In this document: piece after piece, positions 8,001 to 53,426 of the stretch
How positions within the stretch are numbered: position 1 is the first letter of the stretch
Layout: each line of letters begins with the position of its first letter
Source of the DNA: Anaerolineae bacterium
Lineage (GTDB): Bacteria > Chloroflexota > Anaerolineae > B4-G1 > SLSP01
Direction of reading: 5' to 3'
Assembly (NCBI GenBank): GCA_049974845.1
Contig: JBNGCP010000010.1
Coordinates: forward strand, 13,792 to 77,791
DNA: 64,000 nt
Translations under genes and position numbers: made by a program
Notes under the pieces: model-generated
Database searches by the model: none
What the model saw: the letters and a program-made list of their open reading frames with translations, nothing else
What the model was told of the DNA's origin: nothing

Positions 8001-8009
8001 GATCTGCAT
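5007..8009 (-). CDS. xanthine dehydrogenase/aldehyde oxidoreductase family molybdopterin-binding protein fused to an N-terminal (degenerate) 2x[2Fe-2S]-type domain (MOP/XdhD architecture)
   Basis: 1000 aa. The N-terminal 160 aa align with the in-window CoxS but lack all Cys ligands. This is followed by an a/b-hammerhead (LYAKILHSPHAHARIKDID) and Moco domains (GAGFGNKQE; C-terminal GVKSVAEI with the conserved Glu). Confidence 0.85.
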   Translation of the reverse strand: MQITIVLNGDQRQFDVTPRETLFQLLRREGFYGVKFGSEDGADGYSTVLVDGRPQNSVVTLAAQVDGAKITTIEGLGERQRLGWDRAGTWHPLQRAFVETGAIQSGYDTPALILAGLALLNRNPSPTEAEVRDAISGIVSRETGYVKPVEAILRAAAYLRGEDPGPVGGESGADLFLMPEELLGPDGRPGEGPEPLETGGGGGAATQTRVKMQPKVFVTAEAQRFSVVGQPLPKVDAPKLAQGHAAFVADFERPGMLYAKILHSPHAHARIKDIDTQEAEALPGVHAVLTYKNVPRVVYSTAGQSYPIPGPLDYVSFDDKVRYVGDRVAAVAAESPEIAEEALSLIHVDYEVLPPVLDLDAARAEGAPVIHDQEDYVNFGESDPSRNLVARVSIDVGDVDTAFDDAAAVFETTVETQKMKHVPLEPWVTLTYWDEDDRLVILTSTQVPFHVRRILAPVLGLSEGEIRVIKPRIGAGFGNKQEIYEDIPAHLTIATGRPVLLELTREEQFIYTTTRHPMRVSYRLAVDDEGKMLAQDIDVLSDTGAYGGHGLTVLGNTGHKTLPLYNTPNVRFRGETYYTNRPRAGAYRGYGVTQGVVATETLITRAACELGWDPLEFRLQNIIAPHTENIMSKAWSEGREAHGEIIETNALREAAIQGAAAVDWHQKFGHPDWHLVPGKPYLRRGIGVAFLMQGSGIANLDMGAASIKMNDDGTFNLMVGATDLGTGSDTVLGQIAAEVLGCDLDDLIIRSSDTDLTPFDKGAYASSTTYVSGGAVARAAEEVARQIKDVAAEMLGGEPEAFTLSGGRAWRDDRLSLSFREIATHALHTQNQHQIMGHGSFVSPVSPPPFAAQFAEVTVDMETGQTTVDNLLIALDSGQIINPLTASGQAEGGMHQALGYALTEELIYDTEGRTVNPRLDDYRVFRADESPPMQTLFVETFEPSHPMGVKSVAEIVVNGVAPAVINAIYDATGVMIQRTPVTPERLWKALKGQAPPEGNG

Positions 8010-18755: not shown

Positions 18756-20879
18756 CTATCCCACCGGAATCTCGACACAGTCCTGGCGCATATACGTCTC
18801 GAACCCGCTCTCCAGCGGTAGCCGCTGCTCGGGCGTGTAGAGGCCCACGTGCAGTAGGCACCCGGGGCAGCCATCAGAACCCACATTGAGGAAAAAGCGA
18901 TCCCGAAGGCGTGTTCCGGGCTGCCATCGACTGGTGGGATAGGCGTCCGCTCCTGCGATGTGGTCGTGTTGGGCTATCCGTGTGCCGTCGGGCCGTATCA
19001 GGTGGACGAAGACGGTGTAGTCCGCGACGAGATCACCCTCGGACTCCCACCACAGATCCACCTCCCAGGTCTCGGCACTCTTGATCACACCATAGCCGCG
19101 CAGCTTGATCGGCGCCTGAAACCGGACCTCGATCGGGACCGGAGGACGGGCCAGACGATCCAGCGGACGGCAGCTCTCCAGGTCGAAGCGTAGCAGCCAG
19201 ACATTGGTGAACTCTGCTGCGACGGGGAGACGCTGACAGGCCTCAATCAACACGCTCTGAATCAGGTTCGTGGGATCCGCAAGATGATGCTGCCAAAGGA
19301 CAAGCCACAGCCGCGGTCGCCCTTGCGTCTCTCGCTCCAAAACGTCCAGCGCGTGGAGGTCGACCACGCGTCCGGTATCGAGCACCCGGGTCCCATACGG
19401 GAGGCCGAAGAGGTGGGCCGGCCCCTCATAGTAGTAGTCCAGTGTCGACGCGGCGTAACCACCGACAACGACGATAGCCTCGTCGCCCTCGCCATGGGCC
19501 TCGATATACCGCGCGACGCCGCGGAAGTCGGGTCGTGGGTGCCATTCATCCCGTAGCGCCAGCGCCCAAGTGCCCTGGGCCTGGCGCGCGTCGGCGATGA
19601 GCGTGAGCGTGACCCAGATGAGGGCAAGGCCCAACCCGACAGCGCGATGTACACTCCCTTTGACGGCTTCGTGCTGTTTCGGTGAGGTTCGCTCTTTGCC
19701 AATTCGCGTCCTCAGCAGCAACTCCCACCCGACGCCGACGGTTACGACAACCGCGATCCCCCAGGAGGGCAACAGGTAGCGCTCTGCCCACTTCGCTTTG
19801 ACGAGGGATAAGCTGTAGAGCCCGGCAATCGGGACGGTCAGTGCCAGGATTTGCCACAGCCCGCCGCGATAGTGGCGCGTGGCGAAGCTGATCGCGATTG
19901 CAGCGGCCAACGAGAGACCGGCGACGGCAACGAAGAGCGTCGTCCACGGCGCGGTGAAGTACTGGCCCACTCCAAAGAGTATGGGGATCCATCGGAGAAC
20001 ATCCGTCGGGATCGCAGAGACCGCGGTCGCATCTAGAGCGGCGCGTTTTGCAGCCCAACCGAAGATGGGTAACGCCAGGGCCGCCAGGAGCAGGTTGGCC
20101 CGCCACCAGCGAACCCGCTCGCGGTGCGTGTGCGGCGCATCGGCTCTGCGGCTGGCGCCGCCCTCGTGAATTGCGTACAGGCTGAGCCAGCCCCAGAGCC
20201 CGACCGTCACCCACGCGAGCGCTGTGTAGAGATGGGCCAGGAGCATCAGCACACCCAGGCTGACGTAAGCGATTTCGTAGCCTGGGCCCGGACGCCGACG
20301 CGCCAACAACTCCCAGCTGGCCCAGGCGAAGCCGGCTACCAAAGGGACCGCAAGGGCATACATGCGGACCTCCTGGCTGTAGTAGACGAAGATCGGCAGG
20401 GTGGCGCAGGCCAGCGCACTGCCCAACCCGGTTGCCCGCTCTCGGGATATCGAGCGGCTCAGCCGCTGGGCGAGTGGTATCGCTGCCGTGCCCAGCAAGA
20501 CGGAGAGATATCGCGCGGCAAACTCCCCACTTCCCGCAACTTGGACCCAGAGCGCCAAGATGGCGCCATGGAGGGGGAGTGCGTTATCCTCGCGAATGAG
20601 CCCCTGGACAGCGCGCAGGAGGCCCTGTTGTGCGTGGAACAGGACAAAGGTCTCGTCGTACCACAGCGACGTCGCGTTGAGCCCCCATACTCTCAGGGCG
20701 AAGGCCAGCAAGACGATGGCGCTGCCGCCAACGACTGACCACTTGGGCGCGTGAATCGGGCTTTGCTTAAGCGTGCGACAAGAGCGAGGTGGTGGAGCGG
20801 CGTTATCGGCCTGAGATGGCACAGGTGCGCTGGTCTTCGAATCATCGTGGGTCGTCACACTCGCATTATACATAGACAT
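18756..20879 (-). CDS. GT-C fold membrane glycosyltransferase (family 39 / PMT_2 / ArnT-like) with C-terminal soluble domain
   Basis: Multiple TM helices and a WYDETF motif after the first TM. I chose the start at Met91 (20879), because the 797-aa track ORF would overlap the divergent dihydropyrimidinase gene. Confidence 0.7.
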   Translation of the reverse strand: MSMYNASVTTHDDSKTSAPVPSQADNAAPPPRSCRTLKQSPIHAPKWSVVGGSAIVLLAFALRVWGLNATSLWYDETFVLFHAQQGLLRAVQGLIREDNALPLHGAILALWVQVAGSGEFAARYLSVLLGTAAIPLAQRLSRSISRERATGLGSALACATLPIFVYYSQEVRMYALAVPLVAGFAWASWELLARRRPGPGYEIAYVSLGVLMLLAHLYTALAWVTVGLWGWLSLYAIHEGGASRRADAPHTHRERVRWWRANLLLAALALPIFGWAAKRAALDATAVSAIPTDVLRWIPILFGVGQYFTAPWTTLFVAVAGLSLAAAIAISFATRHYRGGLWQILALTVPIAGLYSLSLVKAKWAERYLLPSWGIAVVVTVGVGWELLLRTRIGKERTSPKQHEAVKGSVHRAVGLGLALIWVTLTLIADARQAQGTWALALRDEWHPRPDFRGVARYIEAHGEGDEAIVVVGGYAASTLDYYYEGPAHLFGLPYGTRVLDTGRVVDLHALDVLERETQGRPRLWLVLWQHHLADPTNLIQSVLIEACQRLPVAAEFTNVWLLRFDLESCRPLDRLARPPVPIEVRFQAPIKLRGYGVIKSAETWEVDLWWESEGDLVADYTVFVHLIRPDGTRIAQHDHIAGADAYPTSRWQPGTRLRDRFFLNVGSDGCPGCLLHVGLYTPEQRLPLESGFETYMRQDCVEIPVG

Positions 20880-20906
20880 GGCCCTACTCAAAGGCGTGAA
20901 TTGCCA

Positions 20907-20912
20907 TATAAT
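20907..20912 (+). promoter_or_regulatory. putative -10 box (TATAAT) for the dihydropyrimidinase gene
   Basis: A consensus TATAAT lies 43 nt upstream of the ATG at 20955 in a locally AT-rich spacer. An AGGAGG SD sits at 20945..20950. The -35 is weak. Confidence 0.3.
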
Positions 20913-20954
20913 CTTAGTCATTATGGTGAGACCTAATGCTGACCAGGAGGCGCT

Positions 20955-22337
20955 ATGGCGGCCGAGGGACAGTTGCTGATCCGTGGAGGAACCGTCGTAA
21001 CCGCTGAAACCAAGGTGACAGCGGATGTTCTGGTTGAAGGGGAGATCATCCGGGCTATCGGCCTTGACCTTCCGGTTCCTGAGCACGGTGAGGTCGTGGA
21101 CGCCGACGGGTTGCTCGTTCTCCCCGGCGTCATCGATGCCCACACGCACATCCAGCTCGATACGGGGGTGTACAAGACCGCCGATACATGGCTGGAGGGG
21201 AGTCGCGCGGCTGCCTACGGGGGGATCACAACTGTGGTCGACTTCGCGACGCAGTTCGAGGGGCAGAGCTTCGAGGAGGCGCTGAGCGCGCGCCTATCCG
21301 AGACCGATTCCTCGGTCATTGATTACGCTTTGCATATGATGGTCACCGATCTGCCGCCCGGTCGGGAGGAGGAGCTCGGCGTCCTGCCTGAGCTGGGCAT
21401 TCAGAGCATCAAGCTCTACACGACCTACCGCCCGAACTACTATGCAGATGACGCTACGCTCCTGCGCCTCATGGAGGTCGCGGCGCGCTACAGCCTGATC
21501 ACCCTCGTTCACTGTGAAAACGACGCGCTCGTCGCGGCCCAGACGGAGGCCTTGGTGAAGTCCGGGCGTATTGGCTGGCGTTATCACGGGGCTTCGCGTC
21601 CGCTCCTGGCCGAGCAGGAGGCCGCTGCCCGGGTGCTCTTCCTGGCCGAGGCGGCCGGAGCGCCCGTCGTCATCGTGCATGCCTCGACAGGCCTTACGTC
21701 CTCGATGGTCGCCGAGGCAAGGGAGCGCGGGCAGGTCGCGTTCTCCGAGACGACGCCGCAATACCTGCTCCTGGATAGCTCTCTCTACGAAGGTAACGAG
21801 CCCTGGCGCTACATCCTGCAGCCCCCGTTGCGTCCTAGCGCCGAAACGGAAGCGCTCTGGTCGTTGGTCGCCGACGGCCAGGTGGAGATGTTTGTCACCG
21901 ACCACTGCGACTACAAGAAGGCTCAGAAATTGGCTGTGAACAACTTCACGAAGACGCCAGGCGGCTTACCCGGGATGGAGACGCTCCTTCCGTTGATTGC
22001 GACTTATGGCGTCGCTGCCGGTTGGATCGACTGGCCCGATCTCGTGCGGATGATGGCCGCCAACCCAGCGCAGATCTACAATCTGTGGCCGCGGAAAGGC
22101 GCCCTGCTGCCGGGCTCGGACGCGGATCTTGTGCTCTTTGATCCGGCCTATGAGAGTGTGGTCTCGGCCGAGGAGCTGCATATGGTCGCCGGCTACAGCC
22201 CGTACGAGGGGATGCGAATCAAGGGCCGGGTCGTTAGTACCCTGCGACGCGGGGCGTTCCTGGTCCGTGACGGGACATTTGTGGACGAGCCCTCCAGCGG
22301 CGTCTTCCTCAAGCGCGAAGCTCGCTTCTGGAGCTGA
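20955..22337 (+). CDS. dihydropyrimidinase / D-hydantoinase (cyclic amidohydrolase)
   Basis: 460 aa with VLPGVIDAHTHIQLD (HxH), SIKLYTTY (candidate carbamylated Lys), VHCEND and FVTDHC. Confidence 0.85.
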   Translation: MAAEGQLLIRGGTVVTAETKVTADVLVEGEIIRAIGLDLPVPEHGEVVDADGLLVLPGVIDAHTHIQLDTGVYKTADTWLEGSRAAAYGGITTVVDFATQFEGQSFEEALSARLSETDSSVIDYALHMMVTDLPPGREEELGVLPELGIQSIKLYTTYRPNYYADDATLLRLMEVAARYSLITLVHCENDALVAAQTEALVKSGRIGWRYHGASRPLLAEQEAAARVLFLAEAAGAPVVIVHASTGLTSSMVAEARERGQVAFSETTPQYLLLDSSLYEGNEPWRYILQPPLRPSAETEALWSLVADGQVEMFVTDHCDYKKAQKLAVNNFTKTPGGLPGMETLLPLIATYGVAAGWIDWPDLVRMMAANPAQIYNLWPRKGALLPGSDADLVLFDPAYESVVSAEELHMVAGYSPYEGMRIKGRVVSTLRRGAFLVRDGTFVDEPSSGVFLKREARFWS

Positions 22338-26154: not shown

Positions 26155-27087
26155 ATGGTTTCGCCGTTGAGCAGGGGGCATTTGTTGATCGGACCGTCCA
26201 CCCATCCATATATCGCTATAGAGGGCGTCATCGGTGTTGGGAAGACGACCCTGGCCCGTCTGCTCCAGCCGCGTTTCCAGGCCGACACGATCCTCGAGGC
26301 CTTTGACGAGAATCCTTTCCTTTCTGACTTCTATACAGACCGGGCTCGCTATGCATTTCAGACCCAGCTCTTTTTCCTGCTGAGCCGGTACCGCCAGCAA
26401 CAGGTGGCGGCAGACAAGATTCGGCAGGGCTCGCTCCTGGCCGACTATTTCTTCGAAAAGGATCGACTGTTTGCGCACCTCAATATCCAGAGCCCTGATG
26501 AGCTTGAGATGTACGATCGCCTCTACGAGGCGCTAGCCGAGAGGGTGCGCAGCCCAGATCTCGTCGTCTATCTTCGCGCTCAAGTTGACACGCTGATGGC
26601 CCGTATCGCGATGCGCGATCGCACCTATGAGCGGCAGATGGACCGCGACTATATTGCGGCGCTGCGACAGGGATATGAGCGACTCTTCGCCGACTACGAC
26701 TCAATGCCGGTGCTCATCATCGAGACCGACGAGCTCGACTTCGTGCGGAACCCCGAAGACCTTGATGTCGTGGAGCAGCGGATACACTCGGCTTTGGCAG
26801 GCGTTCGGCAGCCGACCCTGCCCAAGATCTCCTTCCCAACGCCCGCCCGACCTGCTTGGAAGCTCGTCTCGGCGCCGGCCCCTGAGCCACGAACCGAGCT
26901 GAACTGGCAGGCGTTGGGGGATTTCCTCGCGTTGGCGGAGGCGGTGGGGCGTATCGGTGGCTCACTCTCGCAGCAGGCGCCGGTGGGGCCCGAGGGCGCG
27001 CCCGAAGCGATTCGGGACGCTATCAGGGAAGCCAATCGAGCTCTGTTGGTTTTGGCCCAGCGCACCGGCATACAGCTAGAGCGGTAG
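26155..27087 (+). CDS. deoxynucleoside kinase family protein with roughly 100-aa C-terminal extension
   Basis: P-loop IAIEGVIGVGKTTLARLL, FEKDRLFA and RIAMRDRTYER (a LID-like motif). The extension after about residue 210 is Pro/Ala-rich and then helical. The exact start is uncertain. Confidence 0.75.
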   Translation: MVSPLSRGHLLIGPSTHPYIAIEGVIGVGKTTLARLLQPRFQADTILEAFDENPFLSDFYTDRARYAFQTQLFFLLSRYRQQQVAADKIRQGSLLADYFFEKDRLFAHLNIQSPDELEMYDRLYEALAERVRSPDLVVYLRAQVDTLMARIAMRDRTYERQMDRDYIAALRQGYERLFADYDSMPVLIIETDELDFVRNPEDLDVVEQRIHSALAGVRQPTLPKISFPTPARPAWKLVSAPAPEPRTELNWQALGDFLALAEAVGRIGGSLSQQAPVGPEGAPEAIRDAIREANRALLVLAQRTGIQLER

Positions 27088-27139: not shown

Positions 27140-27787
27140 GTGACCAAGTACTTTATCGCGGTGGCAGGCAACATTGGCGTGGGGAAGTCGACGTTGACGT
27201 CGCTGCTGAGCGAGCGGCTGGCGTGGGAGCCCTTCCTAGAAGGAGTTACCGACAACCCTTATCTCGCCGACTTCTATGACGATATGGAGAGGTGGAGCTT
27301 TCATTCCCAGGTTTTCTTCCTGGCCCGGCGGCTGCTCCATCACCGTCAGCTTCTGGCACGTCCCAACTCCGTTATTCAGGACAGGACCGTCTACGAGGAC
27401 GCCGAGATCTTCGCCCGCAATCTCTATGACCAAGGCCTGATGTCCGAACGGGACTACGCTACCTACAGTGAGCTCTACCGCGCCGTGACGACAATCCTTC
27501 CACCTCCGAACCTGGTCATCTATCTCCGAGCATCCGTGCCGACGCTGCGGGCTCGCATCCGCGCCCGGGGCCGGACGTACGAGCGTCAGATCAGCGAGAG
27601 CTACTTAAAGCAGCTCAACGGGCTCTACGAGGAATGGCTAGAGCACTTCTCGCTTTGCCCCGTGTTGACCATCCCCGCCGACCGTCTCGATTTTGTCGCG
27701 CACGAGGATCACTTGGCGATGATCACCGACCGGATTTTGGAGCGACTCCGTGGCAAGGAGGTCGTCTTCTTGGACGAAGACGCGTGA
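27140..27787 (+). CDS. deoxynucleoside kinase (dAK/dGK-like)
   Basis: 215 aa with a GTG start after a GGAG SD. P-loop IAVAGNIGVGKSTLTSLL, DRTVYED and RIRARGRTYERQI. Confidence 0.85.
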   Translation: MTKYFIAVAGNIGVGKSTLTSLLSERLAWEPFLEGVTDNPYLADFYDDMERWSFHSQVFFLARRLLHHRQLLARPNSVIQDRTVYEDAEIFARNLYDQGLMSERDYATYSELYRAVTTILPPPNLVIYLRASVPTLRARIRARGRTYERQISESYLKQLNGLYEEWLEHFSLCPVLTIPADRLDFVAHEDHLAMITDRILERLRGKEVVFLDEDA

Positions 27788-27790: not shown

Positions 27791-29371
27791 ATGACTTTAT
27801 TTGACCGAGACTCCGGTTTTCAGTTCCTCCTCGAAGCGGCGGACGAGATCAACGCGCAGTTGACGGCGGACGGTGTCCTGCAGACCTTGGCCGAGCTCAT
27901 CCAGCGTCACTTTAAGCCCGAGGCCGTCTCCGTCGCTCACGTCGAACCCGGTGGTGCTGTCGTCTTTCGCGCGGCAGCCGGCGCGCGTGCCAGTGAGATG
28001 GTCGGGCTTCGCATGGGGCAAGGATTGGGGATTGTGGGCTGGGTGGCGACACACGGCGAGCGGCTCTGGATTCCGGATGTCGAAGAGGACGAACGGTTTT
28101 ACCAGGCGGTGGATCGGCGACTTGATTTTCAGACGAGGGCGATCCTCGCCATTCCGATGACGGTCCGGGGTGAGACGTTGGCGGTTCTCGAGCTCATCAA
28201 CCCCGCTCCTGGCACAGATATCGAGGTGCTTGATGAGATCGCGACGGCGTTAGCGCTTCTCGCCGCACCGGCTATCGAGAATGTGCGCCTCTTCGAACGG
28301 GCTTACCAGGCCGAAACGCGATACGAACGCCTCTTCGAACTCAATCCAGATCCCATTATCATCATCGGTACCACCGGGAGAATCCGTGAGGTGAATCGCG
28401 CTGCGTGCGCATCGCTGGGCGTCTGTCCGGAGAACCTAAGCACTTTGGGCCTTGGTCGGTTAGGATTGGATGCCGCTTCGTTCCCCGTCCGTTCCCGTGA
28501 GGCACGGGAGCATGGGGTTGCTATGTGGGAGTTCGAGCTCGCGGAGACGGGCAGGATCCTCGAGGCGCGCCTGGCCCATCTGCATGACTATCCTGCGGAA
28601 GAGGGCGCTTACCTGTGGATTGGGCACGATATCACCGATCGCGTCCATCTGGAACGGACACGGCAGGAGTTGGTGAACATGGTGGTGCACGACCTGCGTG
28701 TGCCCTTGGGTAACATCCTCAACAGCCTCGACCTCGTGCTGACGGCCTGGCGTGAGCAGGACATCACCCTGCCCATTGAACAGGTTCTGGAGATTGGGCT
28801 GCGGAGCGCCCATCGGATGGAAGAACTGATCAATGATATCCTGGATTCCGCGCGGCCGCAGGCCAGCGAGCAGACTCTTATGGTTGCCGAGATCGATGTG
28901 GGGGAGCTCGTCGAGGAGGCAGTTGAGGCCCTGATGCCCTCGGCACGCCGCCGTGGTCAGTCCCTAGACGTGTCCATCGAGCCGGAGTTGCCCCGTCTGG
29001 AGGGGGACCTCGACCTGCTACGGCGCGTGCTAACGAATCTAGTGGGCAACGCCGTCAAGTATACACAGGAGGGTGGGGAGATCCGGGTGAGCGTGACGGT
29101 GGACGAGGATCATTTCCGGTTCAGCGTCGCCGATAATGGTCCCGGTATCCCGCTTGCACAGCAAGCACACATCTTCGAGCTCTTTTTCCGTGGTAATGTC
29201 CCGCACACCAAGGGGGCGGGTATCGGTCTCGCATTCTGCAAACTCGCTGTCGAGGCTCACGGCGGGCGCATCTGGCTCGAAAGTGCGGTTGGTAAGGGAT
29301 CGACCTTCACGTTCACCATCCCCCGCACCTTGCCGAGCGACGCCCTCTGGTATCAGGAGGGATCGGTATGA
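27791..29371 (+). CDS. sensor histidine kinase (GAF-PAS-HisKA-HATPase_c), cytoplasmic
   Basis: 526 aa with a GAF-like N-terminus, H-box VHDLRVPLGNI, N-box LTNLVGNAVKYT, and G-boxes DNGPGIP and GAGIGLAFC. No TM segment and no adjacent response regulator. Confidence 0.85.
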   Translation: MTLFDRDSGFQFLLEAADEINAQLTADGVLQTLAELIQRHFKPEAVSVAHVEPGGAVVFRAAAGARASEMVGLRMGQGLGIVGWVATHGERLWIPDVEEDERFYQAVDRRLDFQTRAILAIPMTVRGETLAVLELINPAPGTDIEVLDEIATALALLAAPAIENVRLFERAYQAETRYERLFELNPDPIIIIGTTGRIREVNRAACASLGVCPENLSTLGLGRLGLDAASFPVRSREAREHGVAMWEFELAETGRILEARLAHLHDYPAEEGAYLWIGHDITDRVHLERTRQELVNMVVHDLRVPLGNILNSLDLVLTAWREQDITLPIEQVLEIGLRSAHRMEELINDILDSARPQASEQTLMVAEIDVGELVEEAVEALMPSARRRGQSLDVSIEPELPRLEGDLDLLRRVLTNLVGNAVKYTQEGGEIRVSVTVDEDHFRFSVADNGPGIPLAQQAHIFELFFRGNVPHTKGAGIGLAFCKLAVEAHGGRIWLESAVGKGSTFTFTIPRTLPSDALWYQEGSV

Positions 29372-30597
29372 CACTGAGACTCTACTATCACGATGCGACC
29401 CTACGCGAGTTCACGGCACGCGTCGTTGAGCGGAGCACGGTCTCACGAGATGACGGCACAGAGGCGCCGGCTGTCCGGCTGGATCAGACGGCTTTTTACC
29501 CGACGTCAGGCGGTCAGCCGCACGATATGGGGACGCTTGCTGGCATACCAGTCGTTGAGGTGCAAGAGGATGAAGCCGGCGAGATTTGGCATCTGCTGAC
29601 TGCTCCGCTCTCTTCAGAGCAGGAGGTCGTGCGGGGACAGATCGATTGGGAGCGGCGATTCGACCATATGCAGCAGCACACCGGTCAGCATCTCCTCTCG
29701 GCTGCCTTTCAAGATATGGTGTCCGCCGCGACCGTGGGTTTTCACCTCGGGAGCAACGCCAGCACCATCGATCTCGCTATCTCGGATCTTGACTGGGAGA
29801 TGGTCTTCGCCGTAGAGCAGGCGGTCAACGCGGTGATATGGCAGAATCGGCCGGTCGTCATCCGAATCGTCGACGAAAGCGAGATCGCCGATGTGCCGCT
29901 TCGCAAGCCGCCGGCTGTCTCGGGCAAGATTCGCGTCGTCTGGGTCGAGGGATTCGATGCCTCGGCCTGCGGCGGCACCCACGTGGGGGCCACCGGCGAA
30001 ATCGGGCTGGTGAAGGTCACGGGACTCGAACGATACAAGGGCGGCGTTCGGGTCAGCTTTCTCTGCGGCAAGCGTGCACTGGATGACTATCAGCGCGTTC
30101 TGAACCTTCTTCAGGTCTCCAGCGCGGCGCTGTCGGTGGGCACGGATGAACTACCCGAGGCAATCGCCCGGCTCGAGGAGGAAATCCGGACCCTTCGACA
30201 TGACCTGCGCCAAGTGCGTGCCGAGCTCTTGGACTACGAAACGGAGAGACTCTGGCAGCAAGCTCCCACGGTCGACGGCAAACACGTCATTGTCGCCTAT
30301 TGGGAGGACCACGCGTTCGCCGACGCCCGCTCCGTGGCGGCGCAACTTCGCGAGCGCCCGGCGACGGTGGTGTTGATGGCTGTCACCGAGGATGCGGGTG
30401 TCCGCGTTGTCTGCGCCGTGAGCGACGATCTTCCCGAGCCGGATGCCCGGACGCTCCTGCGAGATGCGCTTGCCGCGCTCGATGGTCGTGGGGGTGGCAC
30501 ACCCAAGCTTGCTCAAGGGGGCGCTGCAGGTCAAGCGGTTGACGACGTGTCGGCGGTGCTTTCGGACGCGTTGGCCCGCCATAACCTCTCAACTTGA
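29368..30597 (+). CDS. alaX: alanyl-tRNA editing protein AlaX-L type (tRNA_SAD + DHHA1)
   Basis: 409 aa with the HTGQHLLS and CGGTHV zinc motifs of the AlaRS editing domain and a C-terminal GGGTPKLAQGG (DHHA1-like). The ATGA start overlaps the kinase stop. Confidence 0.85.
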   Translation: MTLRLYYHDATLREFTARVVERSTVSRDDGTEAPAVRLDQTAFYPTSGGQPHDMGTLAGIPVVEVQEDEAGEIWHLLTAPLSSEQEVVRGQIDWERRFDHMQQHTGQHLLSAAFQDMVSAATVGFHLGSNASTIDLAISDLDWEMVFAVEQAVNAVIWQNRPVVIRIVDESEIADVPLRKPPAVSGKIRVVWVEGFDASACGGTHVGATGEIGLVKVTGLERYKGGVRVSFLCGKRALDDYQRVLNLLQVSSAALSVGTDELPEAIARLEEEIRTLRHDLRQVRAELLDYETERLWQQAPTVDGKHVIVAYWEDHAFADARSVAAQLRERPATVVLMAVTEDAGVRVVCAVSDDLPEPDARTLLRDALAALDGRGGGTPKLAQGGAAGQAVDDVSAVLSDALARHNLST

Positions 30598-30780
30598 GTG
30601 CTTACACAATCACCGAAGAACTTTGTGGGAACGCTGAGGGGCCTCGGCGCCGGGATGGCCCTCTCGAGGCAAAAGAGCCTGAGCTTTTCACATAGGTCTG
30701 ACGGCGCACTTACCCATTGCTGGCCTGAAGAGCTTGCCAGCGAGCGCGGATGACCTAAGATAGAAGATATGGAGGTGCCC

Positions 30781-31653
30781 ATGAAAGAAGTCGCGACCGA
30801 CCTTTTCGTCGAGTCCTCCTATCCGCCCTACAATTTGGTCTTGATCAAGACCGCTAAGGGAGGCATCGTCGTTGATCTGCCTCCCAACCCTGTGCATGCG
30901 ATGAATTGGCTTGAGGAGGCGCGGGCCAAGGCGGGGAAGCTTCGTTATGTCGTTCTCACCGATGCGCAGCGCGAGCGCCAATTGGCCACGGCGGTCTGCG
31001 ACGTGCCCATCATCGCCGCGGAACGCACGCTTCGGATCATGGAGGCCTACGACGAGGAACGACCTTGTCGCGATTTCATAGAGGATCTTGCCGCCCGCTA
31101 TCCCGAGGAAAGCGAAGCCTTCGACGATTGGAGACCGCGGAAACCCTCAATAGCCTTCAACGAGCGCTTCACCCTTTACTTAGAGGAGTGTACGCTCTAT
31201 TTTGAGAGAGTGGAGGGCGCAGGCGAGGGCAGCATCTGGATCCTGATCTCGCCCCAAGAGATCCTCATCGCCGGGGACACGGTGGCAGCCGGTGCGGTTC
31301 CGGCGATGGCGGAGACACCGGACTCAAAGGCCTGGCTCAACACAATGACCGCGCTGGCCCGTCGGTCGGACGTGAAGTCCATTGTGCCGGGGCGCGGGGA
31401 GAGCTTTATCTCGCTCGGGGACATTGAGCCCCAAAGGGAGTTTATGCGCGTGATGCGGCGAGCCGCCCGCACGCTGGCCCGTAAGGGGACCAATGATCTC
31501 AGCCGCGCTCAGACGGCTCAGGAGCTGGCCCAGACCTTCTTCAACCGGCACGGACAGAAGGCCGTGAAAGAGATCAAGGCGGGGCTCGAACGCCTTGTCG
31601 TCGAGGTCGAGGCGGCGAAAGGCACCGACGAGGAAGCGGAAGAGGAGGATTGA
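30781..31653 (+). CDS. MBL-fold-like protein lacking the metal-binding histidines; acidic C-terminal tail
   Basis: The ATG at 30781 follows a GGAGGTG SD. The layout resembles a metallo-beta-lactamase fold (IVVDLPP, YVVLTDAQRERQ in place of THxHxDH, IAGDT, PGRGES in place of PGHG). The tail is GTDEEAEEED. Confidence 0.55.
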   Translation: MKEVATDLFVESSYPPYNLVLIKTAKGGIVVDLPPNPVHAMNWLEEARAKAGKLRYVVLTDAQRERQLATAVCDVPIIAAERTLRIMEAYDEERPCRDFIEDLAARYPEESEAFDDWRPRKPSIAFNERFTLYLEECTLYFERVEGAGEGSIWILISPQEILIAGDTVAAGAVPAMAETPDSKAWLNTMTALARRSDVKSIVPGRGESFISLGDIEPQREFMRVMRRAARTLARKGTNDLSRAQTAQELAQTFFNRHGQKAVKEIKAGLERLVVEVEAAKGTDEEAEEED

Positions 31654-31663
31654 CCCGCCGCTT

Positions 31664-32137
31664 CTAGCCTTCCAGGTAGGCGAGCAAGTGCTCCAGCGCC
31701 ATCTGCGCGGCACGGTGGTTGTTCTCGTGCCGGTCACCGGTGAAATGGTGCCGCCAACTCCAGGCCTCGCCGGGCACGGCCAGGCCGATGTAGTAGAGAC
31801 CCAGCGGCTTCTGCGCCGTCGCACCGGTGGGGCCGGCAATCCCTGTGACGCTCAGCCCGACTTCCGTGCCCATTGACAGACGTGCGCCCTTCGCCATCTC
31901 CGAGGCCACCTCAGCACTGACGGCGCCCCATCTTGACAAACTCTCTTCGCTCACGCCTAGGAGCTTCATTTTGACGTCATTGGCATAGGCGATGACGCCG
32001 CCCCAGAAGTAGGCTGAGCTACCGGCTACGGCTGTGATCTGGTGGCCCAGCAAGCCCCCGGTAGCCGACTCCGCGATGGCGAGATGCCATTGTCTCTGTG
32101 TTAGCTGCTTCGCCAAGCGTTCAACCAGCATATGCAA
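31664..32137 (-). CDS. CinA-family nicotinamide-nucleotide amidohydrolase domain protein (PncC-like)
   Basis: 157 aa with AIAESATGGLLGHQIT and GLSVTGIAGPTG, typical of the CinA C-terminal domain. Confidence 0.85.
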   Translation of the reverse strand: MHMLVERLAKQLTQRQWHLAIAESATGGLLGHQITAVAGSSAYFWGGVIAYANDVKMKLLGVSEESLSRWGAVSAEVASEMAKGARLSMGTEVGLSVTGIAGPTGATAQKPLGLYYIGLAVPGEAWSWRHHFTGDRHENNHRAAQMALEHLLAYLEG

Positions 32138-32191
32138 ATCTCTCCAAGTGTGTTGTTGATCAAAGGTCCAGGATCGAAGTGATCGGCAGGG

Positions 32192-33172
32192 CTAGACCGC
32201 GAGTTGATTGCGCACCATCGCCAAGAGCGACTGCGCCCGCAAGGATGCAAGGTTGTAGCACACGCCTTCGAGGTGATCCGCGAGGGACTGGGCCAGGCCC
32301 TTGTCGTAGTCCGCGCTTTCCATGTTGATCACGATAGCCTTAATGCCCTCCTCTCGAATCTGCTCGGCGACGTGGTAGGCCTCGACCTGCGGGGGCATAT
32401 CGCCCATTGAGACATTGCCGGCGCCATCGGTCAGGATCACCATGAGCGGCACAAGCTCGGGGTATCGGCGCACCTCCTTCTGGATCGTCTCGTAGGCAAG
32501 CCAGAGCCCGGCCGCCAGGGGCGTCTTCCCACCGATGGGGAGGTTGGCAAGCATTCTCTTCGCCAGCTCCACGCTATTCGTCGGCGGGAGCACGAGGGTG
32601 GCACGATCCTTCTGAAAGACGATCATACTGACCCGGTCGCGTCGTTGATACGCATCGGTGAGCAGGGAAAGAACAGCTCCTTTCGTGGCCTCCATTCGCT
32701 CCGAGACCGCCATCGACCAGGACGCATCCACGACGAAGACCACCAGGTTTGCGGCCCGCCGCACACGGATTTTCTTCTGATAGTCTTGGGGGCGCAGCAG
32801 CAAAGCGGGCTCCTCGTCGTCACCGCTGTCCCGCTCACGCTGGAACGGCGCTGCTGCCCGCAGCGTCGCGTCAAAGGCCAGGTCTGACACATCGCGCGGA
32901 GATGATTCGAATCCTGCATAGCGACCCCGCTTGCGCGTCGTACGGGTTCGGCTGCGCCGCCCGGCGGTAGAGCGGACGGTGCGATCCGGCGGCGTCTCCA
33001 GCCGTCGGGGCTCGAAGATCTCACCGGGCTGTATGAACTTCCCGCCCTCCCACCATTTGCCATCGGTGGGCCAGTTCGGGGTCTCTTGTTCGAAGGCTTG
33101 CGGTTGAGACGATTCGGAGGGCTCTGCGCCTTCCTCACCCGCCTCAACCTCTACACTTTTTTTTCGCGGTCC
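32192..33172 (-). CDS. ChlD/BchD-type linker + VWA (MIDAS) domain reading frame; it has no canonical start until the GTG at 32890 and is probably reached by a -1 frameshift from the upstream ChlI-like gene
   Basis: The frame is open for 326 codons from just after the TGA at 33173..33175. The upstream 94 codons (acidic/Pro linker, then [17 protein letters not shown]...[15 protein letters not shown]) resemble the conserved ChlD segment and lie before the first possible start. MIDAS motif VVDASWSM. Confidence 0.7.
33102..33164 (-). promoter_or_regulatory. candidate recoding signal: A_AAA_AAA slippery run plus downstream stem-loop
   Basis: An A8 run on the minus strand (33164..33157) is phased as GAA AAA AAA in the ChlI frame. 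After a 7-nt spacer, GGTTGAG (33149..33143) pairs with CTCAACC (33108..33102), with additional inner GGAAGG/CCCTCC pairing. The 0-frame TAG stop is at 33153..33151. Confidence 0.55.
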
Positions 33173-34272
33173 TCACCCGAGATCTGACTCTCATATTCGG
33201 TCTGGGTTTCCTCGGGCAGGGTATCTTTAGCCTGCTCCCTGGCTGTCGCCACGATCTGATCGAGCTGCTCGATCGACGTCTGCACCTCGTCGAAGGGGCG
33301 GCGCTTGAGCCGATGCGGCAGGGCCAATTCTGCAGCGACGAGTATGTCACGATCGACAAGGTGGCGGCGGCCCTCCCAGGCCGCATGGGCGACGGCCGTC
33401 TTGAGGATCACCAGATCTGCACGGTGGCCGTCCACGCCCAGTCCTGCCATCATCTCGGCGATAGTGAACATATCGGCCCGGGTGTACCGTACCTCGGGCA
33501 AGAGGCATCGTGCTTCTTCGATCCGCTCGGCGAGCCGCCTCTCCTGGGGGGCCATCTCTTCGAAGAATGACTCACCATCCTGCTCGAAGGCCAAGTTGCG
33601 CTCCATGATCGCCATCCGGGCCTGTGTGTTCTGAACGCCGGCCACATCCACACAGAGCGCGAAGCGATCCAGTAGCTGGGGGCGGAGGTCACCTTCCTCC
33701 GGATTCATGGTCCCGACGAGGATGAACCGTGCGGGGTGTTGAAATGAGATGCCTTCACGTTCGACCGTATTGACTCCCATCGCAGCGGCATCCAACAGCA
33801 CATCCACGATGTGGTCGTCGAGCAGGTTGACCTCATCGACATACAGGATGCCGCGGTTTGCGGCGGCCAGCACGCCTGGCTCAAACCGGCGCTCGCCCTT
33901 CTGAATTGCTCGCTCGATGTCCAGCGTCCCGACGACGCGATCCTCCGTTGCACCAACGGGCAGCTCGACGAAGGGCACCTTCCGTGATGCGGAAGGCAGC
34001 GTCTCTCCGCGCTCCACCCGGCTCCGGCAGTTCGTACACCAGGTCGCAGGCTGGTCGGGGTCGCAGTTGAAGGCCCCGTCGGCGACCACCTTGATCTCCG
34101 GCAGCAACGCCGCGAGCCCCCGAGCGGCGGTGGACTTAGCCGTGCCGCGCTCACCACGGATCAACACACCGCCGATACGGAAGTTAATGGCATTGAGGAT
34201 GAGCGCACGCTTCATCCTCTCCTGATTTACGATGGCGGTAAAGGGAAAAACCAAACGCCCGTTCTCAGCCAC
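33151..34272 (-). CDS. ChlI/BchI-family AAA+ ATPase (chelatase small-subunit-like), 0-frame product
   Basis: Contains [21 protein letters not shown], Walker [10 protein letters not shown], Walker [14 protein letters not shown], and [23 protein letters not shown] prefer the GTG at 34272 because it is preceded by AAGGAGG plus 4 nt; the track start at 34302 is also a GTG. Confidence 0.85.
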
Positions 34273-34567
34273 ACTGCCTCCTTGCCGATCCTCAGACCCC
34301 ACCCTATTCGAAGCCGCAGCCGGCCCCAGTCATGAAGAGGGCCGTCGCACTCGAGGGATCCAGCTACCTTTGGTCTCGGCGCCCTGGGACGGACACGACC
34401 CGCATCACGCGCCGGGCGCCGCAGTAGATGAGTTCCTGGCCTTATTATACCGTAAATCAACGCGCAGGAAGGGATGGCCCCTATCAGGCATTTGCCGCCT
34501 CTTTCGGCTCAGAGTACACTAGCCCGCAGCAAGGCTTAATAGCCTCAATCTTCGCGGAGATTCCTTT

Positions 34568-36244
34568 ATGCGTGATGAGAGATACTCAGTTGGCATAGAC
34601 TATGGCACTGAGTCGGGTCGGGCTGTTCTGGTGGACGTCACGGATGGGCATATCGTGGCCACGGCCGTGCACCCATACGCTAACGGTGTGATCGACGAAG
34701 TGCTCCCAGGCACCGATGTCTACCTCGAACCGGATTGGGCGCTTCAGGATCCGAACGACTATCTGGAGGTACTGAAGCGGACAGTCCCGGCCGTGCTCGA
34801 AGAGAGCGGGGTGGAACCAGAGAGGGTGATTGGCATCGGTATCGACTTCACCGCCTGCACCGTCGTGGCGACGAAGGCGGATGGCACACCGCTGTGTTTC
34901 CTCCCCAAATGGCGCGAGCATCCTCATGCCTGGGTCAAGCTATGGAAACACCATGCCGCCCAGCCAGAGGCGAACAAGCTAAATGAGATCGCACGGGAGA
35001 TGGCCCAGACGTGGCTCGATCGGTATGGTGGCAAGATCAGCTCCGAATGGTTCTTCCCCAAGGTGTGGCAGACGCTGAATGAGGCGCCAGAGATCTACCA
35101 GGCCGCGGACCGCTTTATCGAGGGCGCGGACTGGATCGTCTGGCAGCTGACGGGCAACGAGACGCGCAATAACTGCGCGGCGGGCTACAAGGCGCTCTGG
35201 TCTAGGGCGGAGGGCTTTCCCCCGAAGGCGTTCTTCAGAGCGCTCGATCCCCGGCTGGAGAACGTCGTGGATGAGAAGGTGTCGCGCGATATCCGATTCC
35301 TCGGTGAGCGGGCCGGCGGTCTCACCGGGGCCGCTGCACGATGGACAGGCCTGAAAGAAGGGACGGCGGTCGCGGTGGGCAATGTAGATGCGCACGTGTC
35401 GGTGCCGGCGGGCACCGTCACAGAACCCGGGCGCATGGTGATTATCATGGGCACATCGAACTGCCACATGGTCCTCAGCAAGGAGGCGTCTCGGGTCCCA
35501 GGCATCTGCGGATACGTCGATGGCGGCATTATCCCCGGTTACTTTGGCTACGAGGCGGGCCAATCATGCGTGGGCGATCATTTCGCGTGGTTTGTTGAGA
35601 ACTGCGCACCAGCCGACTATCAAGAGGAGGCTGAGGCGGAGGACCTGACGATTCACGAGTTGCTGGAGGCGAAAGCGGCGCGCCAACGGCCCGGCGAGCA
35701 CGGCCTGGTGGCGCTCGACTGGTGGAACGGCAACCGTAGCGTGCTCGTGGATGTGGACCTCACCGGCCTTCTCGTTGGAGCGACGCTGGCGACCAAGCCG
35801 GAGGACATCTACCGAGCGCTCATCGAAGCGACCGCTTACGGCACGCGGATGATCATTGAGACGTTCGAGGAGCATGGTGTCGCGGTCGACGAGATTGTCG
35901 CCACAGGGGGGCTGCCCGATCGCAATAGACTGCTTATGCAGATCTACTCAGATGTCACCGGGCGTGAGATCAAGATCGCTGCGGCGCCTCAAACCTCCGC
36001 CCTGGGCTCGGCAATGTTTGGCGCCGTGGCGGCGGGAAAGGAGGCCGGCGGATATGACACGATCGAGGAGGCGAGCGCCGCGATGTCGGGCTTGCGTGAC
36101 GAACGCTATGTGCCGATTCCCGAGCACACTGCGGTGTATGACAAGCTTTATGATGAGTACGTCCTCCTTCACGACTACTTCGGCCGCGGCGCGAACGACG
36201 TAATGAAGCGGCTCAAACGCCTCCGAGCTGAGCAGTTGGATTGA
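34568..36244 (+). CDS. araB: L-ribulokinase (FGGY family)
   Basis: 558 aa. [16 protein letters not shown], the length, and conserved blocks ([29 protein letters not shown]) match AraB. Confidence 0.85.
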
Positions 36245-40842: not shown

Positions 40843-41108
40843 ATTAGCAGAGCCCCGTCGGCAACCCGAAGCGTAGATGAGGCTAGTATACTCGTGCTGG
40901 GGGTTTTGTCTATTGTCGGGCCCACAGGCGATCCAGGGTTGCGATCATGGCGCGCGAGACGTGCCTGGGTCTCCGGCATTAGCATTTCTGCAACACCCTC
41001 GATCGTGGTACAATCGCGAATGTGACCTTTCGGTTGGTTGATGACCTCTCGCCTGTTTGAACGGCCAGCGTGGCTGGCCAGAACCCCGATGTTCTCCGGA
41101 GGTGCGTG

Positions 41109-42260
41109 ATGAAGTTTGGGATTGATAGTGGGATTCCCTACGGTAACGTCTGTGATGTGACCCTCACACCCGACGGTGACACCCTTGAAGTCGCTTTCGC
41201 GCCGGATCCTCACGGCGGGCCGGAGACGCTCTGGTTCTACTTCCGTGTGCACCGGTCTCAGGGCCCAGGGCCCGATGTGAGCCGCCTCAGACTCCGGCTC
41301 AAGCACAGCTACAACATGCTTGGTGGGCAGGGGCCAGAGACGATGCGACCGGTCGTCCGCTATGAGGAAGGCCCCTGGCGCCGGCTTCCGCAGGGTGAGC
41401 TTCTCACGTACGCCGATGGCCGTGTTGACGTTCACTGGTCTGTCGCCGTGCCGAACCAGTCCCTGGACGTAGCGTATTGTTACCCGTATGGGAGGGATGA
41501 CCTCACGACGCTTCTTGCAGAGACGCACGGGTATTGGCGTCTGGATACGATCGGTGTAAGCCAAGCTGCGCGGCCGCTGGTTCGTCTGAGCAACGACTAT
41601 GGTGAGGAGGACAGCACGCGGCCGGGCCTCTATCTAATGGCGCGACAGCACGCCGGTGAGACACCCGGATCGTGGGTCCTCGATGGATTCCTGCGAGCGT
41701 TAGCGGACCTGGGAGACGACGCGCCGTTGACCTGGGCCGTGCCACTGGCCAACATCGACGGGGTCGAGAGCGGCGACTATGGGAAGGATAACTTCCCCTA
41801 TGACCTCAACCGCGCTTGGGGGCGCCCCCCTATGCGCCACGAGGTGTCGGTCTTTCAGCGCGATATGGCACGGTGGCGCCATCGATGCCAGCCTATGTTA
41901 GGTATCGACTTCCACGCGCCCGTGGCCTGCGAGACGTGTGGGGTCTACGTCTATCTGCCTGACCCGGACACCGACCGCGGCGTGCATGATATCATGCGGC
42001 GGTGGGCCGCTTGGACGCTGGACGAGCTGGGATCGACCTATGCGGCGGACCCTTTTGACCGAGTGGCACGGTATCCCTCACGATGGGAGACCCCCCGTTT
42101 CCGTGACTATGGCTGGCTTCAGTTAGGCCTGCCCTGCATCACCTTCGAAACGCCGTATGCGATGGCGGGCGAGAAGGTGTTGACGCAAGAGGATTACCGG
42201 GAGATCGGTCGGCGCCTCGTCGCCGGTACGATGCGGGGTATTGAGGCCATACTCGAGTAG
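41109..42260 (+). CDS. M14-family zinc carboxypeptidase-like protein with N-terminal beta domain
   Basis: ATG at 41109 (MKFGIDSG). HAGETPGS (HxxE zinc motif) and a later DFHAP (third ligand region). The layout resembles cytosolic carboxypeptidase-like members. Confidence 0.7.
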   Translation: MKFGIDSGIPYGNVCDVTLTPDGDTLEVAFAPDPHGGPETLWFYFRVHRSQGPGPDVSRLRLRLKHSYNMLGGQGPETMRPVVRYEEGPWRRLPQGELLTYADGRVDVHWSVAVPNQSLDVAYCYPYGRDDLTTLLAETHGYWRLDTIGVSQAARPLVRLSNDYGEEDSTRPGLYLMARQHAGETPGSWVLDGFLRALADLGDDAPLTWAVPLANIDGVESGDYGKDNFPYDLNRAWGRPPMRHEVSVFQRDMARWRHRCQPMLGIDFHAPVACETCGVYVYLPDPDTDRGVHDIMRRWAAWTLDELGSTYAADPFDRVARYPSRWETPRFRDYGWLQLGLPCITFETPYAMAGEKVLTQEDYREIGRRLVAGTMRGIEAILE

Positions 42261-51161: not shown

Positions 51162-53426
51162 CTATATAACCCCCAGCGCCTCCAGAATCCGCGCTGGCGT
51201 CATGGGCAGGTCATCGACGCGGGCCCCTACCGCTTGGTAGATCGCCGCGGCGATTGCCGCGGGCGGCGGCATGATCGGGGTCTCCCCTACGCCGCGCGCC
51301 CCGAAGGGGTGGCCCGGATATGGGACCTCCACGATCACCGTCTCGATTGCGGGCACATCCAACGCCGTAGGGATCTTGTAGTCCAAGAGGTTGGGGTTGC
51401 GCAATTGCCCGTTCGTGTCGTAGTCATAGCCCTCGTAGAGCGCCCAACCAATCCCCTGGGTTGCACCGCCCTGCATCTGCCCCTCGACCTGCGTCGGGTT
51501 GATCGCTTTGCCGACATCCTGAACGACAGTATACCGCAGGAGGGTCACCTTGCCGGTCTCGGGATCGACCTCCACGTCGATGATGTGCGTCCCGAAGGAG
51601 GTGCCCCAATCGCCCACGTCCACGTTCGCCACGCCGATCACGGTGTTGCCGGTCTGCGGCAGGAGGGCAGCGAGCTCCTCAAAGCCCAGCGCCTTCTCGG
51701 GATCTTCGGAGGTGCGGAAGGTCCCTTTCTCGAAGACAACGGATGCCGCGGGCACCTCCCAGATCTGCGCGGCGCGCCTGGCCATCTTGTCGATCACGTC
51801 CCGAGCTGCCTCGACCGCCGCAAGGCCGGTTGCCACGGTCGTCCGGCTGCCGGCGCTGACGTCCGAATAGCCGATGGTGTCGGTGTCGCCTACGCTTGCC
51901 TTGACCTTCTCGAGCGGGAGTCCCAGCGCCTCTGCCGCTTGCATCGCGATGCTGGTCCGCGTCCCGGTGATGTCCACAGATCCCATGACCAGCGCAACGG
52001 TGCCATCGGGGTTGACGGTGATGGTGACGCTCGACCGCGCACCCCAGTTGCCCCAAAATGCGTGCGCGACGCCACGTCCGCAGTACGGCTTGTCGAGGGG
52101 CGCTTTGTAGTGAGCGCTCGCCCGGGCTGCCTTCAGCACCTCGAGGGCCCCGATGTCGTGATGCACCGACCCGTCGATCGTCTCCGATCCCTCTCTGACA
52201 CTGTTACGCAGCCGGAAGTCGAGGGGATCGATGCCTAGCCGCTCCGCCAGATCGTTGACGACCTGCTCGGCTGCGAAGCAGGCCGGCGTCGCCCCCGGCG
52301 CGCGATAGGAGTCGACCTTGGGCTTGTTGACCACGACGTCGTATCCCTCGATCCGACCATGGGGGATATCGTAAGGCGCGAACATCACGTGCGCGCCAGA
52401 GCCCACCGGGGACGTTGGATACGCCCCCGCTTCATAGATCAGCGTGGCATCAGCGACTGTGATGCGCCCCTCCCGCGTGGCGCCCATCTTCACGCGGATA
52501 TACGTCCCGGGCGTCGGTCCGGTGCCGACGAACGTCTCCGGGCGACTCATCACGACCTTTACCGGTCTACGTGCTTTCCTCGCCAGTAGCGCCGCCACGC
52601 CGTCGACGAAGCTGCTGTTCTTGCCCCCGAAGGCGCCGCCGACCTCCATCGGGATGACCCGGATCTTGGACATCGGCAGCTTCAGCAGGCGTGCAAGATG
52701 ATCGCGCACGGCAAATGAGCCTTGGGTCGTGGCATAGACTGTCAGCGCACCGCCCTCCGTCCAGACCGCCGTCGAGGCGTGGGGCTCGAGGTATCCTTGA
52801 TGCACCATTCGGCTGGTGAACTGCCGCTCCACGATCACATCGGCCTGCGCAAAGCCCGCCTGTGGATCGCCTTTGACCTGCTCGAAGTGCCAGGAGACGT
52901 TGGTGGAGCCCTCGCCGGAGCCGGCCAGGGAGCGCGTGCGGAGGCAGGGATGCAGCACCGGTGCATCGGCGCTCATCGCTTCCCGTGCGTCAATCACCGG
53001 GGGCAGAATCTCATACTCGACGTCGATCAGGGCCAGGGCCTGCTCAGCGATGGCCTCTGTGCGAGCCGCCACGGCCGCGAGGGGATGGCCTACAAAGAGG
53101 ACCTTGTCACTGGCCAGGACGTGATCGCGAAAGTACTTCTCGTCCATGGCTTCCTCGCCCGAGCCATTGGGCTCGGGCAGATCCGCGGCGGTCACCAGCG
53201 CATAGACGCCCGGCAGCGACGCCGCACGGCTCGTGTCCAGCGACCGGATGCGGGCGTGGGCGTGTGGACTGCGCAACACCTTCCCAATAAGCAGGCCGGG
53301 CAGATGGACGTCGGTCGCGTACTGTGCCCGCCCAACCACCTTTTCCGCTGCATCGACGCGAGACTCGCGAGCGCCCACGACGGAGAGGGTTTCGAGTAGG
53401 CCCTCGGTCTTCTTCTCACTGCTCAT
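51162..53426 (-). CDS. xanthine dehydrogenase family molybdopterin-binding large subunit (CoxL-like, non-CODH type)
   Basis: 754 aa with GKVLRSPHAHARIRSLD, GGAFGGKNS and GARGVGETPI. The CODH-specific VAYRCSFR loop is absent. Confidence 0.9.
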   Translation of the reverse strand: MSSEKKTEGLLETLSVVGARESRVDAAEKVVGRAQYATDVHLPGLLIGKVLRSPHAHARIRSLDTSRAASLPGVYALVTAADLPEPNGSGEEAMDEKYFRDHVLASDKVLFVGHPLAAVAARTEAIAEQALALIDVEYEILPPVIDAREAMSADAPVLHPCLRTRSLAGSGEGSTNVSWHFEQVKGDPQAGFAQADVIVERQFTSRMVHQGYLEPHASTAVWTEGGALTVYATTQGSFAVRDHLARLLKLPMSKIRVIPMEVGGAFGGKNSSFVDGVAALLARKARRPVKVVMSRPETFVGTGPTPGTYIRVKMGATREGRITVADATLIYEAGAYPTSPVGSGAHVMFAPYDIPHGRIEGYDVVVNKPKVDSYRAPGATPACFAAEQVVNDLAERLGIDPLDFRLRNSVREGSETIDGSVHHDIGALEVLKAARASAHYKAPLDKPYCGRGVAHAFWGNWGARSSVTITVNPDGTVALVMGSVDITGTRTSIAMQAAEALGLPLEKVKASVGDTDTIGYSDVSAGSRTTVATGLAAVEAARDVIDKMARRAAQIWEVPAASVVFEKGTFRTSEDPEKALGFEELAALLPQTGNTVIGVANVDVGDWGTSFGTHIIDVEVDPETGKVTLLRYTVVQDVGKAINPTQVEGQMQGGATQGIGWALYEGYDYDTNGQLRNPNLLDYKIPTALDVPAIETVIVEVPYPGHPFGARGVGETPIMPPPAAIAAAIYQAVGARVDDLPMTPARILEALGVI

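Follow-up and report, generated by a model that had tools for sequence, protein, structure and literature searches.

What does a gene mean that seems to break in two at a run of eight A's? In the 64,000-nucleotide stretch of Anaerolineae bacterium DNA analyzed here (contig JBNGCP010000010.1; hereafter the window), a ChlI/BchI-like AAA+ ATPase frame overlaps a VWA-domain frame that lacks a start codon, and an earlier model reading of the bare letters (the sequence-only reading) had proposed that the two are joined by a programmed −1 frameshift or by transcriptional slippage. We consider it probable, with good confidence, that the two frames belong to a single recoded gene, of the fs-chlD ("magnesium chelatase") type and expressed through programmed −1 ribosomal frameshifting, and not to two genes.

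All checks of the gene were made on the minus strand of the window. The first open reading frame (ORF1; 33151..34272, 0 frame) encodes a 373-residue, ChlI/BchI-like AAA+ ATPase, the small-subunit-like short product. Its longest possible version begins with a GTG at 34302; the start is probably the GTG at 34272, as judged from a putative Shine–Dalgarno (SD) sequence, AAGGAGG (34277..34283), located 4 nucleotides (nt) upstream. Intact Walker A (GERGTAKS) and Walker B (LYVDEVNLL) motifs can be read directly in ORF1, and Pfam places Mg_chelatase, AAA_5, and AAA_lid_2 domains there. The frame closes with GAC CGC GAA AAA AAA GTG TAG. Within this ending, the A8 run (33157..33164) supplies a slippery heptamer, A_AAA_AAA (33163..33157), of the defined type A_AAA_AAR/A (PMC5009743) and in phase with the 0 frame, and the TAG stop (33151..33153) lies one codon past the run. 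No other A8/T8 run occurs in the window, which has 62.8% GC and a shuffle expectation of 0.12 such runs.

Starting past a TGA (33175..33173) and closed by a stop at 32194..32192, the −1 frame (ORF2) spans 326 codons, and the A8 run falls within its 22-nt overlap with ORF1. The first ATG, GTG, or TTG in this frame is the GTG at 32890, preceded by 94 codons without a start. From the run onward, the −1-frame continuation (32192..33157) contributes 321 codons and a stop, which together with ORF1 would give a D-like product of 693 residues counted from GTG 34272, with ...GEDREKK joined to SVEVEAG... at the junction. ORF2 contains a Pfam VWA (integrin-I-like) domain at residues 144–312 (32237..32743), with the MIDAS motif DASWS at 32728..32714. 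Re-reading the minus strand thus returned every coordinate that the sequence-only reading had given for the ORF1 ending, the phase of the heptamer, the stop, and the start-less frame, together with the intact Walker motifs and the VWA domain with its MIDAS that it had described.

That reading had also predicted a fusion of about 693 residues with the AAA+, linker, and VWA architecture of a D subunit, and the joined product is indeed a full-length TIGR02442 protein. It scores 791 bits with this NCBIfam profile ("putative cobaltochelatase"; cutoff 779.45) over positions 1–640 of 641, and each half alone falls under the cutoff (ORF1, 503 bits over positions 1–343; ORF2, 276 bits over 361–640). 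The equivalog cutoffs of the Mg-chelatase families are not reached, as ORF1 scores 413–416 bits with TIGR02030 (BchI-ChlI; cutoff 466.95) over positions 1–332 of 337, and the score with TIGR02031 (BchD/ChlD) is 452 bits against a cutoff of 499.55. The nearest PDB structures are ChlI (8osf, 6l8d), BchI (1g8p), and the BchD VWA domain (2x31_A), with E-values of 1e-90 to 1e-103 for the ChlI/BchI matches. Homology to single-ORF ChlD-type proteins spans the junction. Among the database homologues of the fusion, the top 120 are without exception single ORFs, ∼688 residues long and with 63–67% identity and 97–99% coverage, the named members being mostly Anaerolineae/Chloroflexota. In 19 aligned single-ORF homologues the linker is variable, and its only conserved element is a KK pair at the position of the window's A-run.

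Could the VWA protein nevertheless come from a second, ordinary gene that begins at GTG 32890, at a non-canonical start, or by termination–reinitiation? The 94 start-less codons bear directly on this question. The last 61 of them (32891..33073, ending in SSPRD) align to the TIGR02442 profile from position 361 onward and are rich in residues that are invariant in the 19-homologue alignment (Q396, P399, P402, G405, W408, G411, G438-R-R-S441, G450, Y452, S458, and P459). The ratio of nonsynonymous to synonymous substitution rates (dN/dS) over this stretch is 0.06–0.18 against nine orthologues and 0.40 against the most divergent one, L104 (L numbers designate related loci), matching the rest of ORF2 across these ten orthologues. 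Because the stretch is invariant-rich and has a dN/dS of 0.06–0.18, we conclude that it is translated, in agreement with the earlier claim that these codons are not junk. A start before the conserved motif is likewise absent from the six closest orthologues (L005, L103, L007, L101, L102, and L008). Two adjacent genes would fit the way in which annotation pipelines split such loci (PMC3711429), the -1-frame ATG that overlaps the 0-frame stop (ATGA) in L012, and some internal initiation in published reporters (Antonov 2013, PMC3711429), but translated, conserved codons upstream of any possible start make this explanation highly improbable for the window. Several A9-group loci (motif NWWEGG) have an incidental ATG ∼22 codons past the run, and the argument from a missing start codon is thus confined to the subgroup to which the window belongs.

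We then turn to the relatives of the gene, which comprise 160 related loci from scans of species-representative genomes and metagenomes. The N- and C-terminal halves could be placed by tblastn in 158 of 161 sequences, including the window, and the C-terminal half lies in the −1 frame in 36 of these 158 loci (35 plus the window); those with an organism name are Chloroflexota. An A7–A10 run occupies the junction in all 36, with A7/A8 in 13 loci (window included) and A9/A10 in 23. The 0-frame stop follows the run within 2–4 nt in most of the 36, and exactly 3 nt after it in 11 of the 13 A7/A8 loci. The nearest relatives of the window share 75–87% identity in the N-terminal half, and the best species-representative match, L005, is an Anaerolineae metagenome-assembled genome with 86–87% identity in that half. 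The alignment check suggested by the sequence-only reading, namely whether the A-run, the adjacent stop, and the hairpin discussed below are conserved in orthologous loci, thus found all three recurring.

This recurrence also bears on whether the break is an artefact, either a homopolymer error that conceals a genuine A9 or a frameshift that recently inactivated a former single ORF. Sequencing errors are common in homopolymers, and single ORFs are frequent among the relatives, but 35 independent assemblies share the −1 arrangement, 12 of them with A7/A8 and the stop likewise placed one codon past the run, and the downstream frame is intact over 321 codons with a dN/dS of ∼0.05–0.13 against closer orthologues. 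Because all 36 −1-arranged loci carry A7–A10 at the junction, we regard a sequencing error or recent pseudogene as extremely improbable.

The in-frame Chloroflexota relatives (L081–L097 and L001–L006) keep runs in the linker, mostly A9–A11, with a −1-frame stop 0–31 nt downstream; in these genes a slip would give the short product instead. Genes with A9 or longer are about equally common in the two arrangements (20 in-frame vs 23 out-of-frame). Of the more distant in-frame relatives, those in Streptomyces and Dehalococcoidia and most archaeal loci lack the A-run. In L014, L019, L022, L025, L029, and L075 (mostly Dormibacterota-type), the ChlD-like gene is followed downstream by the best ChlI-like match; these six loci have a separate chlI beside an in-frame chlD and no A-run, a duplicated-gene solution to the same problem. 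L143 (metagenome contig Ga0315274_10001745) is the only locus with its C-terminal half in the +1 frame relative to the N-terminal half. Its A7 run is followed by a strong hairpin (z = −3.8), and the locus may reflect either a misassembly or another type of recoding. The junction of L012 (2415–2430), AAAAAAAAGTATGAGC, in which the ATG overlaps a TGA stop in the classic termination–reinitiation arrangement, retains an A8 run and the hairpin despite this overlap.

A second signal lies immediately downstream of the run. The stem–loop that had been noticed to begin 7 nt after the heptamer (33102..33149) proved to have an 11-bp outer stem, formed by GGUUGAGGCGG (33149..33139) and UCGUCUCAACC (33112..33102), and an inner helix, with a free energy of −28.9 kcal/mol (z = −2.7), and is a candidate frameshift stimulator. 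A strong hairpin begins 5–8 nt after the run in 13 of 13 A7/A8 loci (z from −2.2 to −5.5) and in none of the 23 A9/A10 loci (z from −1.8 to +1.4); the two sets of z-scores do not overlap (Mann–Whitney p = 5e-7, for loci that are not phylogenetically independent). The stem core GUUGAG/CUCAAC does not vary among the ten closest loci, and 3 of 11 stem pairs, all flanking the core, show compensatory changes; 95.5% of alignment cells are paired, and none of 500 shuffles reaches the observed values. The stems that L016, L104, and L076 carry at this position are unrelated to it. Synonymous divergence (dS) is reduced over the hairpin region, the first 28 codons past the run (33073..33157), to 0.57–0.65 compared to 1.2–1.8 in the rest of ORF2 among the closest orthologues, which is consistent with an overlapping constraint from RNA structure.

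Upstream of the run, an SD-like GGGUGAGGA (33170..33178), which contains the TGA that opens the −1 frame and has 7 nt between its GAGG and the heptamer, is a possible additional stimulator. Complementarity to the anti-SD sequence peaks at −14..−12 in the 13 A7/A8 loci (mean −7.3 kcal/mol), and the window's value is weaker (−6.0 kcal/mol). GGGGAGG occurs at the same spacing in 6 of these 13 loci, where the window has the weaker GGUGAGG. The positional peak is seen in the A7/A8 group, and the window's own GGUGAGGA is weak. The motif is suggestive as a stimulator and serves as a lead only; it also encodes Gly-Glu-Asp, and the loci are related.

Which process joins the two frames? The sequence-only reading had named both programmed −1 frameshifting and slippage; its case for recoding is supported, each testable element having held. 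Sequence alone cannot separate ribosomal frameshifting from transcriptional slippage, although the downstream hairpin favors the ribosomal route. If RNA polymerase stutter on the A8/T8 tract were the main route, some mRNAs would carry A9, the fusion would be a plain ORF, and the junction peptide would not differ from that made by frameshifting. Runs of A are well known as sites of slippage, and the frameshift product from homologous cassettes in Escherichia coli reporters rose with run length, from 10% (A7) to 40% (A9) and 63% (A11) (PMC3711429), in protein-level assays that are blind to the route. Yet the conserved, covarying hairpin 5–8 nt downstream is found exactly at the short-run loci and has the geometry of a ribosomal stimulator, whereas the known stimulator of transcriptional slippage is a nascent-RNA hairpin upstream of the run; none was seen upstream here, and no consistent one was found in any run-length class of loci. 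Efficient transcriptional slippage usually needs nine or more A's, as known from IS elements and Thermus dnaX, and the window has only A8, with A9–A11 in its relatives. We therefore consider slippage unlikely as the main route in the window and a stronger candidate for the hairpin-less A9–A11 relatives, whose mixture of in-frame and out-of-frame genes would fit a process that makes both products either way.

Because a short run with a covarying hairpin 7 nt beyond it and a stop in the next codon but one has the geometry of ribosomal frameshifting, we favor −1 ribosomal frameshifting as the most likely route at this locus. Under this mechanism, normal decoding would end at the TAG (33153..33151) and release the 373-residue ChlI-like AAA+ ATPase, and a fraction of ribosomes would slip back one base on A_AAA_AAA (33163..33157) and continue in the −1 frame. 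The slip product, of 693 residues, would combine the same AAA+ module with an acidic/Pro linker and the VWA/MIDAS domain, as in the D (medium) subunit of chelatases. A single mRNA would then supply the I-like and D-like partners of an AAA+/VWA motor complex, and because normal decoding would give the former and the slip the latter, the efficiency of the slip would set their ratio. The stem–loop (33149..33102) probably promotes the slip, the stop one codon past the run may help it, and a contribution from the SD-like GGGUGAGGA, 7 nt upstream, is possible. If RNA polymerase inserted one more A at the A8 tract, the same protein would result, and this may add to the yield. The comparisons show the anatomy, the conserved arrangement and run, the covarying hairpin, the selection on the start-less codons, and the family assignment; the slip in this organism, its efficiency, the ribosomal over the transcriptional route, and the biochemical role of the complex are what we infer.

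Several points weigh against this account. The 13 hairpin-bearing loci belong mostly to one clade, so that the association of hairpins with short runs lacks phylogenetic independence. Codon phase of the run was considered as a test between ribosomal and transcriptional slippage and rejected as uninformative, because A8 fits the heptamer in any phase and A7 in two of three. The SD-like element is weak in the window, and its 7-nt spacing is closer than the 10–14 nt that is optimal for −1 shifting in E. coli. Finally, the "chelatase" role is unproven because no large subunit is encoded nearby.

This last point rests on several searches. Pfam and tblastn found no CobN/ChlH homologue in the 64-kb window, as the sequence-only reading had stated, and the window likewise contains no second chlI or VWA paralogue, no cob or bch genes, and no cobalamin riboswitch. 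The 3–10 kb flanks of the 35 orthologous loci with the −1 arrangement likewise gave no cobN or cobalamin genes, and a cobN farther away may exist. A tblastn search with the CobN of L020 as a probe located cobN beside ∼45 loci, all in-frame and nearly all without an A-run; many of the more distant relatives, in Streptomyces, Dehalococcoidia, and archaea, adjoin cobN. A Pfam CobN search of the large ORFs of the window and the orthologous loci was positive only for the archaeal locus L020. In the window, the gene is flanked instead by a divergent FGGY kinase gene (34568..36244, plus strand) and, downstream, by cinA/pncC (31664..32137, minus strand). At least one of these neighbors is kept in nine close relatives, with both present in L098, L005, L103, and L007 and cinA kept as a neighbor in L100, L016, L012, and L104.

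A broader proposal with two parts, offered tentatively, we consider possible but on the whole doubtful. The I/D motor of Anaerolineae fs-chlD genes may work without CobN/ChlH and have a function other than tetrapyrrole metal insertion. In addition, two recoding solutions may have replaced one another in different lineages of this one family: a short A7/A8 run with a downstream hairpin, which would act by ribosomal −1 frameshifting, and a long A9–A11 run without structure, which would act largely by transcriptional slippage, the long run making in-frame and out-of-frame genes interchangeable.

The remainder of the window contributes only side observations. A promoter/terminator scan of 31500..34700 found no promoter-like sites and one terminator-like site, on the opposite strand and no more than expected by chance; Rfam and tRNA scans of the window found nothing. 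Tandem deoxynucleoside kinase genes (26155..27087 and 27140..27787, plus strand) are followed by a gene for a GAF/PAS histidine kinase (27791..29371) and one for an AlaX-like tRNA_SAD/DHHA1 protein (29368..30597). Two genes encode large subunits of molybdenum hydroxylases of the xanthine dehydrogenase/aldehyde oxidase family (5007..8009 and 51162..53426, minus strand), the first fused to a [2Fe-2S] domain. ORFs without a Pfam match at E ≤ 1e-5 lie at 18756..21149 (minus strand, 797 residues), 41070..42260 (plus strand, 396 residues), and 30769..31653 (plus strand, 294 residues).

Recognition of recoding matters for annotation, as a locus of this kind is split by pipelines, one part being called a "magnesium chelatase" gene and the other a "VWA protein" without a start or a pseudogene; recognized as recoded, the locus receives a correct two-product gene model. 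It offers a clean, well-conserved case of a single gene that would fix the stoichiometry of two subunits with a common AAA+ module. With its conserved FGGY kinase and cinA neighbors, the locus is also another place to test the role of an I/D pair without a large subunit, a question raised previously (PMC9227772). The contrast between run length and hairpin and the mixture of in-frame and out-of-frame genes with A9 or longer are modest additions that may or may not be new.

How does this gene compare with known systems? The −1 signal of E. coli dnaX consists of an SD-like element, the heptamer A_AAA_AAG, and a downstream hairpin, with an SD spacing of ∼10 nt. The window gene resembles it in having an A-rich heptamer that is shortly followed by a hairpin (a 7-nt spacer with covariation support, within the ∼5–9 nt of dnaX-type signals), a possible SD-like element, and two products with a common N-terminal AAA+ module. 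It differs in that the shift yields the shorter product in dnaX and would yield the longer one here, and in that the SD-like element, which is putative in the window, is spaced at 7 nt rather than ∼10 nt.

With the Mg-chelatase subunits BchI/ChlI and BchD/ChlD, the window products share the AAA+ and VWA/MIDAS domains and the I-plus-D logic. The I-like and D-like proteins of the window, however, come from one gene with an identical AAA+ module, have no chlorophyll-pathway context, and score under the TIGR02030 and TIGR02031 equivalog cutoffs. TIGR02442, which describes the ChlID-type CobN partner in B12 producers without CobS/CobT, is matched by score, the fusion passing the cutoff over the full profile, but the genomic association with cobN or cobalamin genes that is the contextual hallmark of this family is absent from the window and from the 3–10 kb flanks of the −1-arranged orthologous loci, where FGGY kinase and cinA/pncC genes are the conserved neighbors.

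The closest match is the published fs-chlD family, and the remark in the sequence-only reading that frameshifting had been proposed for chlD-type genes is borne out by three papers, with reporter assays of homologues (PMC3711429, PMC5009743, and PMC9227772). Antonov et al. 2013 placed 23 "magnesium chelatase" −1 frameshifted genes in one cluster, with members from Pseudomonas, Burkholderia, Delftia, Herpetosiphon, Methanocaldococcus, and Methanococcus, and noted fused single-ORF homologues (PMC3711429). According to Atkins et al. 2016 (PMC5009743), purifying selection acts on the A_AAA_AAR shift site, and the stems beyond it lack sequence conservation. According to the passage of Kuznetsov et al. 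2022 that cites Antonov 2020, fs-chlD occurs in all major phyla (PMC9227772); examples include Brevefilum fermentans and several other Anaerolineae, and some genomes with fs-chlD have neither cobN/chlH nor either of the two pathways, so that the I/D pair has no assigned function there (PMC9227772). The recoding family has thus been published since 2013, as has its occurrence in Anaerolineae, and the window holds a further member. Like other fs-chlD genes, this one has a ChlI-like AAA+ ORF, an overlapping −1 VWA ORF (22 nt), a conserved A-rich heptamer within the overlap as candidate shift site, and a stop that follows closely; its downstream stems are conserved as structures and not as sequences, single-ORF fused homologues exist, and the type is known from Chloroflexi/Anaerolineae in genomes with or without a large subunit. 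We find no essential difference, and this locus and its nearest relatives form a subgroup within the family, marked by a strong hairpin after a short A7/A8 run and possibly by an SD-like element.

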